Shown here: positions 9,143 through 42,286 of the stretch, piece by piece
Numbering within the stretch: position 1 is the stretch's first letter
Layout: every line of letters begins with the position of its first letter
Source: Escherichia phage LF82-1
Reading direction: 5' to 3' (one strand)
Sequence record: PV648359
Length of the DNA stretch: 64,000 nucleotides
The notes under the pieces: model-generated
The model's input: only the letters and a program-made list of their open reading frames with translations
The model's database searches: none
What the model was told of the DNA's origin: nothing
Translations under genes and position numbers: made by a program

Positions 9143-9171
9143 ATCTTAACATATCTATCGAGGATGTAAAC
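9143..9171 (-). promoter_or_regulatory. T4-type early promoter (GTTTAC -35, 17-nt spacer, TAAGAT -10)
   Basis: Hexamers read on minus strand about 30 nt upstream of the 8932..9114 gene. Confidence 0.45.
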
Positions 9172-9262
9172 TGTTTTATGAAAATATTTTTGATTTGAGA
9201 GGGGCACAAGGAGATAGTGAAGTGAAGATTCCAATGGATTATATTAGAAATGAGATAAAGAA

Positions 9263-9281
9263 GACCAGGCGGCACCTGGTC
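9263..9281 (-). terminator. hairpin (GACCAGG-N5-CCTGGTC) at the 3' end of nrdH
   Basis: 7-bp GC-rich stem overlapping the nrdH stop codon, followed by a U-rich stretch. Confidence 0.4.
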
Positions 9282-9603
9282 AATCTTCTATGATATCAGA
9301 GTCGTATCCTAATGAAATCAAGGACTTTTTAAACTCTGCAATATTCTTTTGTTTCTTATCATTTAAAAATATGACAGGATAACGAATATTAAGTGAAGTG
9401 AATCCTGCACGTTTAGCAAGAGATACGATTAAAGGACGGTCATATTCAATCTTACCATTATTAGTGAGGACTTTATAAAATGTATAAGGAGCATTGAGCT
9501 CCTTTAAAAGTTTTGTAACAGTATAACATCCTGGACAACGTCCAACTTCTTCAGGGATGCCATAAATTTCAATCTTGTTCTTTAAGTTCGAGTTTTGTTC
9601 CAC
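9280..9603 (-). CDS. nrdH: glutaredoxin-like protein NrdH; start codon non-canonical (candidate GTG at 9603)
   Basis: CPGC redox motif (…IYGIPEEVGRCPGCYT…); no in-frame ATG upstream of the motif except far inside the upstream ORF; sits next to nrdG/nrdD. Confidence 0.6.
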   Translation of the reverse strand: MEQNSNLKNKIEIYGIPEEVGRCPGCYTVTKLLKELNAPYTFYKVLTNNGKIEYDRPLIVSLAKRAGFTSLNIRYPVIFLNDKKQKNIAEFKKSLISLGYDSDIIED

Positions 9604-9886
9604 GAGAAATAATTCCTTGGTAAGCCCAATAAGGAGGATTAACCGAATCCTCACCCGAGTTTTCTTCAGGAAAATAAACCTGGATAACGAAGCCGGATTC
9701 ATCAAATGTAAAATAAACTGTAGGCAGTTCACCTAACAATTCGGCACGAGCATTAATTTCTTCGAGGTCTTGTTCACGTCCAGCCCAAAAACTAGGATTT
9801 AGATTACATTCGTAAAAATAATAGTCATTACCGAACATATCAAACCCCTTCCAACTCTCTACCACGTACCGCTCAAAACTAATCAT
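9569..9886 (-). CDS. hypothetical acidic protein
   Basis: 105-aa ORF with ATG start. Confidence 0.5.
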   Translation of the reverse strand: MISFERYVVESWKGFDMFGNDYYFYECNLNPSFWAGREQDLEEINARAELLGELPTVYFTFDESGFVIQVYFPEENSGEDSVNPPYWAYQGIISRGTKLELKEQD

Positions 9887-9888
9887 AA

Positions 9889-10104
9889 TTAAGCCTTTTT
9901 ATCAAGAACAGAATTCAGTTTGTTAGTAATTTTATCCAGACGCTCATTGAACTCATTAGAAGATAAGCCCTTTTCTGGAGAAATTAAACTAATCACGAAA
10001 AATACACCAGTAAAAGGAATAAGAAAAATAGCTCCAACTGCCATAAACAGAAAGAATGTTACAGTTGTAAGAAAATCAGCTAAACCTTTACGAAATTTAT
10101 ACAT
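9889..10104 (-). CDS. hypothetical small membrane protein
   Basis: 71 aa with a long hydrophobic segment (FLTTVTFFLFMAVGAIFLIPFTGVFFVISLI). Confidence 0.5.
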   Translation of the reverse strand: MYKFRKGLADFLTTVTFFLFMAVGAIFLIPFTGVFFVISLISPEKGLSSNEFNERLDKITNKLNSVLDKKA

Positions 10105-10215
10105 ATTTACCCTTAATTAATTAACCAAGCGTTGATAAGCAAACCATATTGCGAATAAAATTCTGGGCCAAAATGAAAAATCATATCATTTATAGTATCC
10201 ATAATATAATTCAAT

Positions 10216-10686
10216 TTAATCATGTTTCCACACCCCATCGGTATTTGACCAAAGTCGCTGATTATCTGATCCTCGCCACAGCTTTTTGGTCGGAAGATTT
10301 TTCTCATACTTCCCATCAATAATAACATCAACATATTTAAGCATTTTTAGTTGTTTAATATCTTCAAACTTATATCCTGTCCACAACCAAATGCTTTTAT
10401 TGGGATAAAGATTTTTAATAGTTTGAACCACAGAGTGAATCACATCTCGGTTATCAGGATAGAGAGGGTCACCTCCGGTTATAGTCAATCCTTCTATATA
10501 ATCATTATTCAAACATTCAATTAATTGTTCTAGTGTTTCACCAGTGAATGGAATACCATTTCTAGCATTCCATGTTGATTTATTATAACACCCTTCGCAT
10601 TTATGCAAACAACCTGTGACGAAAAGAACGACCCTACAACCAGGGCCATTCACAAAATCGCAAGGATAAAATCTATCATAATTCAT
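10216..10686 (-). CDS. nrdG: anaerobic ribonucleotide reductase activating protein NrdG (radical SAM)
   Basis: 156 aa; CLHKCEGC (CxxxCxxC) cluster motif; ATGA overlap with nrdD. Confidence 0.9.
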   Translation of the reverse strand: MNYDRFYPCDFVNGPGCRVVLFVTGCLHKCEGCYNKSTWNARNGIPFTGETLEQLIECLNNDYIEGLTITGGDPLYPDNRDVIHSVVQTIKNLYPNKSIWLWTGYKFEDIKQLKMLKYVDVIIDGKYEKNLPTKKLWRGSDNQRLWSNTDGVWKHD

Positions 10687-41512: not shown

Positions 41513-41551
41513 GATAGGGTAATAGTATCACTACCCTATCTAAAAGTAAAC
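41513..41551 (-). promoter_or_regulatory. early promoter (GTTTAC) within 9-bp inverted repeat GATAGGGTA…TACCCTATC, PeSL-like
   Basis: Perfect arms flank the -10 region. Confidence 0.5.
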
Positions 41552-41562
41552 GGTTTTATAAA

Positions 41563-41871
41563 CTATTTTATTCCGCGTGATGCAATCGTATTCTGCCGTT
41601 TAACACCAGTTTGTTTAAAGTCATGACTGTCGATTTGATCGGTGCGAGCAACTCCGAATGATGATTTAATCTTAGCTTTAGATCCTTTAGTTATAGAAAT
41701 AAACATCTCGGAAGACCCTTTCTTAAAGTCTGATGCAGATACTTCAACACCGTTCTTAGCAAGTGACCTCAGAATTGCATCCGCGTACTCATCATCAAGA
41801 CTCGCTTGAGTATTAATAACAAATGTCTTTGGTGCAGCCGCTTCATTGATAAATTCTTTATAGGTTTTCAT
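41563..41871 (-). CDS. internal-protein candidate (N-terminus MKTYKEFINEA)
   Basis: 102 aa; capsid-targeting-like start; AGGAAA RBS. Confidence 0.6.
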   Translation of the reverse strand: MKTYKEFINEAAAPKTFVINTQASLDDEYADAILRSLAKNGVEVSASDFKKGSSEMFISITKGSKAKIKSSFGVARTDQIDSHDFKQTGVKRQNTIASRGIK

Positions 41872-41893
41872 TTTATTTTCCTAATTAATTTTG

Positions 41894-41931
41894 ATAGGAC
41901 TACTATAACATAGTCCTATTAGCATGTAAAC
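41894..41931 (-). promoter_or_regulatory. early promoter within 9-bp inverted repeat ATAGGACTA…TAGTCCTAT, PeSL-like
   Basis: GTTTAC -35 abuts the stop of the upstream ipI-like gene. Confidence 0.5.
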
Positions 41932-41934
41932 TAC

Positions 41935-42222
41935 TTACAGAAGGGTTTTTGCAATAATTTTAAGCTGAGCTACAGAAATATGCTTAGCTTTAAACAGTGC
42001 AGTCTCTTCAGCCGGAGAGATAACAATAGTAGCGCCATCTTTCTTAGCAGACCATCCATCCCCTAAGTAAACAGTACCTTTTACTTCTTCGCCATCAACC
42101 AGACTAATCATTGGTTTACCCTCACGTCCTTTATTTGCTTTAATAACTTCGGAAGTAAGGGTCGCTTCGGTCAGAGTAGAAACGTTAGCATCAGGTGATA
42201 TAAATTCTTTATAGGTTTTCAT
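41935..42222 (-). CDS. internal-protein candidate at the ipI locus (N-terminus MKTYKEFISP)
   Basis: 95 aa; located between the tRNAs and 57B as T4 ipI. Confidence 0.6.
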   Translation of the reverse strand: MKTYKEFISPDANVSTLTEATLTSEVIKANKGREGKPMISLVDGEEVKGTVYLGDGWSAKKDGATIVISPAEETALFKAKHISVAQLKIIAKTLL

Positions 42223-42250
42223 TTTATTTCCTTGAGGTTGTTTATTTTAT

Positions 42251-42286
42251 AGGATGATAGTAACACACCATCATCCTTATGTAAAC
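42251..42286 (-). promoter_or_regulatory. early promoter within 8-bp inverted repeat AGGATGAT…ATCATCCT, PeSL-like
   Basis: GTTTAC-17-TACTAT on minus strand. Confidence 0.5.

Follow-up and report, generated by a model that had tools for sequence, protein, structure and literature searches.

The elements described in T4-type phages that come closest to a family of repeats in a 64,000-nucleotide stretch of Escherichia phage LF82-1 (sequence record PV648359; the whole stretch is called the window here), in which a promoter, often an inverted repeat, and a ribosome-binding site are packed together in front of minus-strand genes, are the early promoters of T4 and the promoter-early stem-loop (PeSL) cassettes. 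A consensus of the T4 early promoters was reportedly drawn up by Liebig and Ruger in 1989, and repeats of the IP locus are said to have been described by Repoila et al. in 1994 as AT-rich stems on T4 early promoters. In its published form the consensus has GTTTAC at positions -36 to -31 (PMC1524935; also reviewed by Hinton 2010, PMC2988021), and early promoters were predicted in RB69 and other T4-like genomes by Nolan et al. 2006 (PMC1524935), while the regB promoter of T4 is described as a typical early promoter (PMC3014915). The PeSL concept (PMC2839356, PMC4122927) explicitly takes in the T-even phages, for which the consensus from PST and T4 is TTTACW-N17-TAYWAT with a stem AGNA...TCNT (Comeau 2014, PMC4122927). 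A further relevant system is the promoter-dependent unmasking of the ribosome-binding site at the T4 genes e, soc, 49 and I-TevI (Uzan & Miller 2010, PMC3014915), where a hairpin sequesters the Shine-Dalgarno (SD) sequence and/or the AUG in transcripts from distal promoters.

The repeats of the window are very likely host sigma-70-dependent immediate-early promoters of a Mosigvirus, set in compact PeSL-type intergenic cassettes that also act as recombination homology. A sequence-only reading of this DNA had taken them for a dispersed family of early-promoter and stem-loop cassettes in front of at least 17 minus-strand genes; that interpretation is correct, but the kind of element was already known. 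Early-promoter identity is upheld by the -35 hexamer GTTTAC, the TGn motif, the -10 hexamer, the A/T-rich stretch upstream and the fixed distance to the SD and the ATG, all of which fit the published T4 consensus, and these promoters would be active, with transcription starting 6-9 nt past the -10. They share with the T4 early promoters the -35 GTTTAC, a GT-rich or TGn-extended -10 of the form TAnnnT, an A-rich upstream element, and the position before early genes and novel open reading frames (ORFs) on the early strand; nothing essential differs, the window having several variant -35 boxes (ATTTAC, ATGTAC, GTGTAC). In T4, sites matching the early-promoter motif (re-predicted by motif, the T4 record being used without promoter features) stand at the orthologous genes regB, denV, ipI, trna.4, nrdC.4, nrdC.8, nrdC.10 and 55.6.

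With the PeSL cassettes (Arbiol 2010 for RB49 and phi1; Comeau 2014 for PST/T4 and nt-1/KVP40; Repoila 1994), the elements of the window have in common the succession of A/T-rich stretch, early promoter, stem-loop, SD and start codon, and the location in hyperplastic regions, before small ORFs and internal-protein genes, at the breakpoints of indels or replacements between close relatives. Furthermore, the published stem and promoter consensus of PST and T4 fits the window core TAGGACTA...TAGTCCTA. The differences lie in the stems: those of the RB49 type are G/C-rich (GGGG...CCCC), one of them having been shown to terminate, whereas those of the window are AT-rich and without U-tails; the legend of a PST figure places the stems "just upstream" of the promoter, whereas here they overlap the -10 or the spacer; and a subclass in which the spacer pairs with the SD is found in the window and is not discussed in the accessible parts of the PeSL papers. 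Morons and Botstein-type linkers offer a further parallel, being single genes with their own promoter and short conserved boundary linkers that mediate exchange; morons, however, are defined with a terminator of their own and without conserved flanks, whereas in the window the conserved promoter is itself the linker, always oriented with early transcription. Apart from the window, denV relatives at four loci in jumbo phage genomes (345-378 kb) have in front of them a G+C-rich hairpin with the -35 TTGAC in it, followed by a T-run and TATAAT (GGGTTGACTTCGGTCAGCCCTTTTTGCTATAAT), which, by this arrangement, is an RB49-style terminator-in-promoter PeSL.

The window is 100% identical to Escherichia phage LF82-2 (PV648360.1), a window position being the record position minus 105,999. 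Its close relatives PHB12, SHSML-52-1, PNJ-9, pEK20, mogra and LF82-4 are Mosigvirus (the RB69/JS09 group, T4-like), and the phage of the window is likewise a Mosigvirus, not T4 itself. The region that holds the cassettes is syntenic with 41-75 kb of the T4 map, with the gene order 55.x, nrdH/G/D, 49, pin, nrdC.x, tk, vs, regB, denV, ip genes, e, nudE, tRNAs, ipI and 57B; every gene in it lies on the minus strand, and the plus-strand late genes begin beyond about 46 kb. The deposited annotation of the record consists of coding sequences (CDS) and tRNA features only, leaving the promoters unannotated.

How far does the motif depart from chance? GTTTAC followed by 17 or 18 nt and TANNNT is matched 20 times in the window, and 19 of these matches are on the minus strand, where about 1 per strand is expected. 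Dinucleotide shuffles give 1.96 +/- 1.47 matches and none of 100 reaches 20; the motif is thus not as frequent in shuffled sequence of the same composition, and a chance origin of the repeats is rejected, as is the tandem or mobile-element origin that was also considered. The generic sigma-70 consensus (TTGACA/TATAAT) shows no enrichment in a scan of the window (60 matches against 70 expected; 58 against 58), and therefore the signal is specific to the T4-type -35 box. An unbiased seed-and-extend repeat finder, blind to the motif, recovers the cassette family independently (repeat families D1-D6, D12 and D13).

All 17 copies listed in the sequence-only reading were located, 0-22 nt from where it had put them, including two with a variant -35 (ATGTAC at 17352 and GTGTAC at 20471). 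Three intact copies outside that list have their -10 at 37586 and 37871 (both with ATTTAC) and at 38084 (ATGTAC), which brings the total to 20 intact cassettes plus decayed ones, 5 of the 20 having one or two changes in the -35. The almost identical core attributed to several copies, GGACTATGTTATAGTAGTCC, occurs three times exactly and once with one mismatch. A relaxed scan, with one -35 mismatch, is noisy (50 matches on the minus and 32 on the plus strand, against 27 per strand expected), and its matches were used only to add 37586, 37871 and 20471, by their SD/ATG context. Conversely, the strict matches at 35899, 15352, 13653 and 8440 are not cassettes, having no SD/ATG at the fixed distance and lying in or at the edge of CDS. 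All cassettes are on the minus (early) strand, between 9 and 42 kb, and the motif scan of the window places none on the plus-strand late-gene side beyond 46 kb.

In general terms, a cassette consists of an A/T-rich, UP-like stretch, the -35, a spacer of 17-18 nt (counted from GTTTAC), TGn, a TAnnnT -10, a leader, the SD and the ATG. The extended -10 with TGn is present in 17 of the 20 cassettes; the 20 nt upstream of the -35, in which the motif TCACAAAAC recurs, are 76% A+T and 45% A (window, 63% and 32%), and CTATCAA is conserved around the predicted start. Past that start comes an A-rich, unstructured leader of about 20 nt and then a strong SD, the distance from the -10 to the ATG having a median of 28 nt (range 26-41 in the 20 cassettes). 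The upstream gene usually has its stop codon 0-4 nt before the -35 or overlapping it, and therefore the promoter occupies the entire intergenic space of about 55-70 nt. The ATGs are annotated gene starts in 19 of the 20 cases; the exception, 29641, heads only a 36-codon ORF. By contrast with the claim that the cassettes mark the boundaries of most unknown ORFs, only 20 of the 81 annotated minus-strand gene starts between 7991 and 42985 carry one, and the gene starts that lack one are within tightly packed promoterless runs.

The inverted repeat is a less constant component than the promoter. When the segment from the end of the -35 to the ATG was folded in 19 cassettes and its minimum free energy (MFE) compared with dinucleotide shuffles, 10 were significant at p<=0.023 (z from -2.4 to -5.7), three were borderline (p 0.05-0.08) and six were not significant, so that an inverted repeat at the copies, as first proposed, stands for about two thirds of them (13 of 19, significant or borderline) and not for all. 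Three classes can be distinguished. In class I (22869, 33716, 35011, 37586, 41522 and 41902, with a shifted register at 18994 and 42257) the arms flank the extended -10: spacer positions of about 4-15 pair with the stretch from the last -10 base to about +4, TGn and the -10 forming the loop. In class II (27572, at regB; 30781, at denV; 23319; 9143; with degenerate forms at 29674 and 38456) the SD (GAGGAGAA...) pairs with an anti-SD arm, TTCTCCTC..., that follows the -35 immediately. Class III (16332, 17352 and 38084) has a hairpin of 5-6 bp inside the spacer, with the loop AGGA. In all classes the 5' arm is upstream of the predicted start, and therefore the hairpin is possible only in read-through RNA. 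No known RNA family falls on the cassettes in an Rfam scan, which returns two tRNAs only.

The stems differ in sequence and keep their pairing. Of 22 hairpins with 7 bp or more, pooled from the window, T4, relatives and IMG/VR loci, 12 have exactly the same register, in which the dyad axis falls on the first two bases of the -10; the simplest reason for this common register is that the -35, TGn and the -10 are fixed and only the spacer and the stretch from -6 to +4 are free to evolve. Eleven class I sequences in that register, with stems such as GGACTA/TAGTCC, GGGTA/TACCC, GAGAGC/GCTCTC and GATGAGGTA/TACCTCATC, have changes on both sides in 9 of 12 pairs, and their covariation score is 0.547, against 0.264 for column shuffles (none of 500 reaches it) and at most 0.255 when the partner is slid; the rows were picked for hairpins in that register, so that what is informative is the diversity of pair types and not the percentage paired. 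Searches for class I orthologs in IMG/VR gave 2-8 loci, mostly near-identical and too few, and paralogs and relatives were used. In 66 unique promoters, unselected and drawn from all the loci collected, the duplex between the native spacer and downstream arm averages -6.3 kcal/mol against -4.0 for swapped pairs (permutation p=1e-4, in a test that does not fully remove shared ancestry), and duplexes of -10 kcal/mol or stronger make up 24% of the native and 4% of the swapped ones. Judging from these comparisons, the pairing of the hairpins is under selection, and the tolerance of G-U-type pairs points to RNA.

The clearest consequence of the pairing is predicted for class II. It had been proposed that in several copies the promoter-distal arm contains the SD, so that read-through transcripts would hide the ribosome-binding site and promoter-initiated ones would not, and the folding agrees: the SD is in that arm at regB (14 bp), denV (10 bp) and the gene at 23112-23291 (8 bp), and more weakly at 9143, and at the first three it is hidden in the read-through and not in the promoter-initiated RNA. 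SD accessibility was taken, for each annotated gene start, as the mean unpaired probability in a transcript from the predicted +1 and in one extended 110 nt upstream. On extension it falls from 0.76 to 0.14 at regB, from 0.59 to 0.11 at denV, from 0.62 to 0.17 at the gene 23112-23291 and from 0.77 to 0.34 at the 55.6-like gene (9114); the homolog of gene 49 (start 12970), a known case that served as positive control, falls from 0.53 to 0.02. The loss is greater in cassette genes than in 63 other genes (Mann-Whitney p=0.011). In the read-through RNAs the SD is within a stem in both the MFE and the centroid structure, and the promoter-initiated leaders are near unstructured (MFE from -2.1 to -2.5 kcal/mol, z from +0.5 to +1.2, i.e., less structured than shuffles). 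Three gene starts without a cassette also have their SD strongly paired on addition of the 110 nt, namely 10104 (0.69 to 0.14), 18376 (0.78 to 0.23) and 32071 (0.66 to 0.27), and are candidates for the same control as gene 49.

Masking at regB and denV is further backed by compensatory change in orthologous leaders (8 unique for regB and 27 unique for denV, from IMG/VR genomes and T4). The regB orthologs keep a stem of 10-15 bp whose SD-distal part is wholly different between lineages (CTAGTTG/CAACTAG, CTTGACTG/CAGTTAAG, CTTTATG/CATAAAG, TGTAAGT/ACTTACA), and those of denV have at least 8 stem sequences in two architectures: the arm closely follows the -35 in one and spans the -10/+1 junction in the other, and in both it precedes the predicted start. 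Native arm duplexes are stronger than those swapped between phages both for regB (-18.1 against -13.7 kcal/mol, p=6e-4) and for denV (-15.4 against -9.6 kcal/mol, p=2e-4), shared ancestry inflating tests of this kind; RNAalifold on a MAFFT alignment of the regB leaders breaks the variable part of the stem and keeps 7 pairs only, and the duplex test was used instead. The anti-SD arrangement of denV and regB has been re-invented with at least 8 unrelated stem sequences, in two architectures and in several T4-like genera, and so many unrelated solutions suggest that selection has favoured one outcome repeatedly.

A mechanism can be outlined from these features. With the promoter filling the intergenic space, only spacer positions 1-15 and the stretch from -6 to +4 would be freely evolvable, and the hairpins would have been built there. 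Transcription would start about 7 nt past the -10, and in class II the transcripts of the gene's own early promoter would have a free SD and be translated, while the SD of read-through transcripts would be sequestered. The folding and the ortholog comparison make it fairly probable that class II masking limits translation to the transcripts of the gene's own early promoter, and the expression of regB and denV would thereby be tied to the short window of early-promoter firing. This would transfer the logic of T4 e, soc, 49 and I-TevI to an early promoter. However, for T4 gene e and I-TevI, as far as the accessible text of the review goes, a late promoter is the proximal one and it is early or middle transcripts that are masked, whereas here the proximal promoter is early, the 5' arm lies in the spacer between -35 and -10 or across the -10/+1 junction, and the gate is opposite in time. 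That the promoter-internal anti-SD arm is a general, selected, early-only translation gate, with read-through RNA masked or strictly coupled, as a mirror of the late gate at e, soc, 49 and I-TevI, is proposed tentatively. No description of a promoter-embedded anti-SD arm was found in the literature searched, which excluded Miller et al. 2003, Liebig & Ruger 1989 and Repoila et al. 1994; some residual novelty lies in this arm and in its convergent evolution at denV and regB.

Would read-through RNA really be silent? The same stems could mediate translational coupling, with the ribosome that finishes the upstream gene opening the stem. The stop codons next to the class II arms invite this idea: the TAG before regB shares its G with the -35 and the stop before denV is 1 nt from it, so the 5' arm begins 6-7 nt past the stop, within the footprint of the ribosome. 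Nevertheless, coupling cannot explain the cassettes at 23319 and 9143, where the upstream gene ends 40-110 nt away with a terminator-like hairpin in between, and in many denV orthologs the stop is more than 25 nt away from the 5' arm, which is at the -10/+1 junction; as an account of the SD-masking stems it is doubtful.

For class I and class III, the role is less clear; the best candidate, which is possible, is that of an intercistronic RNA structure serving the upstream message (as a 3'-end stabiliser, a pause site or an attenuator). The original PeSL proposal, in which the stem-loops are transcription terminators or attenuators that insulate single-gene modules, is unlikely to hold for them. 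It has an experimental precedent, since one PeSL stem-loop of RB49/phi1 cut lacZ expression as much as rrnB T1 (PMC2839356), and terminator hairpins do occur just upstream of some window cassettes (23359-23385; 9263-9281, which is terminator-like; 20519-20545). Yet the stems that overlap the promoters are AT-rich, of 5-13 bp, and are followed by CAAAAC or CAACTAC and not by a U-run; a terminator scan of the window has no match on any class I or III stem; the class II stems have loops of 17-30 nt and end in the SD; and the real terminators of the window are separate G+C-rich elements upstream of the -35.

Another thought is that the stems shield the GGAG of the SD from the RegB nuclease in long transcripts, leaving promoter-proximal transcripts cleavable and giving two mRNA lifetimes. 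RNA structure protects against RegB (PMC3014915), and class II cassettes precede regB and the 55.6/comC-alpha homolog, both named as RegB-target mRNAs in T4 (PMC2988021). The RegB cleavage sites of ComC-alpha, however, are in AU-rich sequence flanking the SD and not within it (PMC2988021), and the SDs of several denV orthologs contain GGAG and yet are not known RegB targets. Shielding is improbable, and it would be compatible with the masking of SDs in read-through RNA and not exclusive of it.

The association of the cassettes with modular gene shuffling, also part of the sequence-only reading, is supported by comparison. When window positions 6-46 kb were aligned with seven Mosigvirus relatives, 49 distinct breakpoints, of indels or replacements, were called between 8 and 43 kb; 14 of the 49 are at most 10 nt from a cassette, where 4.7% are expected (p=3.8e-8), and a breakpoint lies near 12 of 18 gene starts with a cassette against 18 of 62 others (Fisher p=0.005). 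Individual events give examples. PHB12 has a one-gene insert of 223 bp with, on either side, a copy of a 54-bp stretch (20427-20480, which reaches from the -10 to the ATG in the cassette at 20471), and SHSML-52-1 and NHEP29 have inserts at that same site; mogra has a 587-bp IpIII insert flanked by a 36-bp repeat (29986-30021), i.e., the SD and the first seven ip codons of the cassette at 30040; a common 262-bp insert of SHSML-52-1, PNJ-9 and NHEP29 joins at the GTTTAC of the cassette at 33716. The ipII module is on the other side of denV compared with T4, homology stopping at the cassettes, and there are chimeric cassettes, in which the same trna.4-like gene has different cassette 5' halves among the relatives. 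In addition, the first 7-10 codons of five internal-protein genes (MKTYQEF...) are a repeat family of their own (D7-D9), which carries the cassette homology on into the coding region and has breakpoints as well, including 29986-30021 and 42200; we take the first 10 codons of these genes to be the CTS capsid-targeting sequence.

In mechanistic terms, the cassettes are dispersed near-repeats of 40-65 nt at gene starts that serve phage recombination as homology patches, and, as the comparative breakpoints show, recombination at them inserts, deletes, replaces or transposes single-gene modules. Most probably they are passive homology, the most abundant of the short homologies at gene starts, and not a dedicated mobile element. 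The opposite view, that they are mobile as PeSL mini-circles, perhaps with the stem-loop as the target of a specific recombinase, can point to mini-circles between adjacent PeSLs detected experimentally in RB49/phi1 (PMC2839356), to single-gene inserts flanked by duplicated cassette halves and to the strong enrichment of breakpoints at cassettes. But the junctions are scattered over the cassette (some at the -35, some between the -10 and the ATG, some in the SD and first codons) and do not sit at the stem, and equally clean indels are found at exact repeats of other kinds. One is an intrinsic terminator of 27 nt, GCCCCTTCCGAAAGGTTGGGGCTTTTT, with 3 exact copies where 0 are expected, copies 2 and 3 being followed by TATAAATA, the T4 late-promoter consensus; it is a second kind of dispersed linker (terminator plus late promoter at copies 2 and 3), an indel of 594 bp (23386..23981, against four relatives) being bounded exactly by copies 1 and 2, and indels of 711-1111 bp ending at 39204-39241, at copy 3. 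The other is a translation-initiation direct repeat of 23 nt, AACTGCGAGAATATTTTAAATGA (minus strand), at 14064-14086 and 14379-14401, which flanks the gene 14086-14382, wholly missing in PHB12, mogra, NHEP29, PNJ-9 and pEK20 (indel about 14087..14368). T4 recombination, moreover, is known to use homologies of 2-10 bp (PMC9391042), and the length required is put below 50 bp (cited in PMC2839356), all of which leaves a dedicated element little probability.

Finally, that the inverted repeats act as DNA, either as the palindromic operator of a dimeric repressor that shuts off the early promoters (in T4 the shut-off mechanism is not understood, PMC3014915, and the dyad axis is fixed on the -10 in 12 of the 22 hairpins) or as a cruciform that modulates the promoter, is very improbable, and the protein-binding palindrome is rejected, because the stems are unrelated between copies but covary, which fits base pairing and not recognition by one protein, because the tolerated G-U-type pairs point to RNA and not to DNA, and because the fixed register is explained by the conserved TGn and -10 having to form the loop.

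Several points weigh against the reading of the cassettes as early promoters with selected stem-loops that serve translation and recombination. Promoter activity and start sites are predictions from the consensus and from T4 orthology. The stem-loop is not obligatory, as six of the 19 tested cassettes have no significant hairpin, and the case for selection on it is tempered by the choice of the class I rows and by the shared ancestry that permutation leaves in place. A terminator role of the class I and III stems is unsupported by sequence criteria (A-rich tails, no scan match), pausing or attenuation being compatible with them. The cassettes of regB and denV abut the upstream stop, and a terminating ribosome would melt the 5' arm, which may amount to coupling and not to silencing. 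Lastly, with breakpoints also at the 27-nt terminator and 23-nt initiation repeats, the cassettes are not uniquely recombinogenic.

The intact and decayed cassettes and the other dispersed repeats are collected in Table 1. The decayed copy at 7992..8046 gives an additional view of the pairing, its pEK20 homolog having an intact promoter (ATGTAC...TATTAT) and the hairpin GATAGGAAG/CTTCCTATC, a compensatory difference, and the orphan cassette at 29639..29703, where relatives have 153-454 bp of extra DNA, looks like a recombination scar.

Table 1. Cassettes and other dispersed repeats of the window (window positions; z and p refer to the fold test)
Feature	Coordinates	Strand	ATG	Promoter and hairpin	Other observations
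55.6/comC-alpha-like gene cassette	9112..9171	-	9114	GTTTAC, spacer 17, -10 TAAGAT; anti-SD arm TCCTCGATAG pairs with CTATAGAGGA; p=0.053	
nrdC.4-like gene cassette	16301..16361	-	16303	spacer hairpin CAACCA-AGGA-TGGTTG, not significant alone	T4 ortholog has CCACA-AGGA-TGTGG
Paralogous cassette	17323..17381	-	17325	-35 ATGTAC; same spacer hairpin as 16332	repeat family D6, 88% identical to 16323-16365
nrdC.8-like gene cassette	18964..19022	-	18966	11-bp hairpin AAGGTCTAT... with ATAGACCTT around -10, p=0.023	T4 nrdC.8 ortholog differs: anti-SD arm GTTCCTC with GAGGAAC
Cassette	20429..20499	-	20431	-35 GTGTAC; degenerate hairpin	
Cassette	22838..22898	-	22840	exact core; 13-bp hairpin TTGGTAGGACTAT with ATAGTAGTCCTACCAA around -10, z -5.7	
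Cassette of gene 23112-23291	23289..23347	-		anti-SD arm TTCTCCTC directly 3' of -35, pairs with SD GAGGAGAA	intrinsic terminator just upstream
regB cassette	27541..27600	-		14-bp stem TTCTCCTCTAGTTG with CAACTAGAGGAGAA, spacer to SD, z -5.4	upstream stop TAG overlaps -35 (shares G of GTTTAC); replacement breakpoint 27604
Orphan cassette, ipIII-promoter type	29639..29703	-	29641		followed only by an unannotated 36-aa ORF, which overlaps the start of the next gene (29592)
ipII-like internal protein gene cassette	30006..30069	-	30008	no significant hairpin	
denV cassette	30751..30810	-		10-bp stem TTCCTCCAAG with CTTGGAGGAA, spacer to SD, z -4.9	upstream stop 1 nt before -35
Cassette	33685..33745	-	33687	exact core; 10-bp hairpin around -10	
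Cassette	34980..35040	-	34982	core with one mismatch, giving a G-U pair; 11-bp hairpin, z -4.1	
Cassette, outside the earlier list	37542..37615	-	37544	-35 ATTTAC; TGAGAGC/GCTCTCA around -10 TATAAT, p=0.01	
Cassette, outside the earlier list	37840..37900	-	37842	-35 ATTTAC; no hairpin	replacement breakpoints 37864-37869
Cassette, outside the earlier list	38051..38113	-	38053	-35 ATGTAC, -10 TACTAT (38084-38089); spacer hairpin CACCA-AGGA-TGGTG	breakpoint 38092 inside cassette
Cassette	38425..38484	-	38427	degenerate anti-SD arm TTCTTCC; fold not significant	SD unpaired 0.79 to 0.46 on extension; breakpoints 38490-38492
trna.4-like gene cassette	41491..41551	-	41493	12-bp hairpin GATAGGGTAGTG with TACTATTACCCTATC around -10, z -3.6	breakpoints 41503-41505
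Internal head protein gene cassette	41869..41931	-	41871	exact core; 10-bp hairpin	breakpoints 41842-41889
ipI-like gene cassette	42220..42286	-	42222	12-bp hairpin AGGATGATGGTG with TACTATCATCCT, register shifted by 5, z -3.7	
Decayed cassette	7992..8046	-		GTTTAT, no usable -10; hairpin GGTAGGAAG with CTTCCTACC kept	before gene at 7991
Decayed cassette	7691-7768			-35 lost, hairpin kept	family D10 paralog of 37586 cassette
Decayed cassette	18377-18438			6-nt spacer deletion (CTTTAC-N12-TATAAT)	
Half cassette	19329-19354			-35/upstream half fused directly to SD	
Internal-protein 5'-codon repeats	29979-30011, 30296-30340, 31064-31093, 41834-41878, 42193-42229				families D7-D9
27-nt terminator repeat, copy 1	23359-23385	-			
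27-nt terminator repeat, copy 2	23973..24008 (repeat 23982-24008)	-		with TATAAATA	before gene 23391-23948
27-nt terminator repeat, copy 3	39199..39235 (repeat 39209-39235)	-		with TATAAATA	before gene 38537-39163

A few further observations concern the surroundings of these elements. Two perfect early-promoter motifs on the minus strand, at 13653-13682 and 8440-8469, are intragenic and come without SD/ATG or hairpin; they have counterparts in T4 (at 47423, upstream of pin, for the former and at 41232 for the latter) and may be bare, conserved intragenic early promoters. At 35899-35940, the e.3-like gene of the window lacks 250 bp that are present in six relatives, and the junction (35928/35940) abuts a perfect GTTTAC-N18-TATAAT site that in the relatives is within coding sequence. 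The positions 11962-11965 and 39903-39986 are empty sites for mobile elements: nrdD of SHSML-52-1 and PNJ-9 has at the first a 1047-bp insert with a homing endonuclease, and LF82-4 has at the second, the position of tRNA-Arg, a homing-endonuclease insert of 698 bp. As for the GenBank records of several relatives (five loci), the nrdC.1-nrdC.11-like genes bear the label "thioredoxin" along their whole run, and "endoribonuclease RegB" is the name given to unrelated vs.x genes; both appear to be propagated annotation errors.

What do these cassettes mean for the phage and its group? They are a real, well-defined and already described kind of element that is unannotated in this genome. The records of the window phage and of its relatives are limited to CDS and tRNA features, to which base-precise positions can be added for 20 early transcription units, several decayed promoters and three terminator/late-promoter linkers. 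In the Mosigvirus group, the breakpoints independently and quantitatively confirm the exchange of single-gene modules (internal proteins, small ORFs) at promoter cassettes, with the caution that other short repeats act alike and that the cassettes look like abundant homology and not like a special mobile element. The promoter-embedded anti-SD arms, in turn, predict that the RegB and DenV proteins would be made only from immediate-early transcripts; if this is true, the arm at regB could explain the confinement of a toxic RNase to the first minutes of infection.

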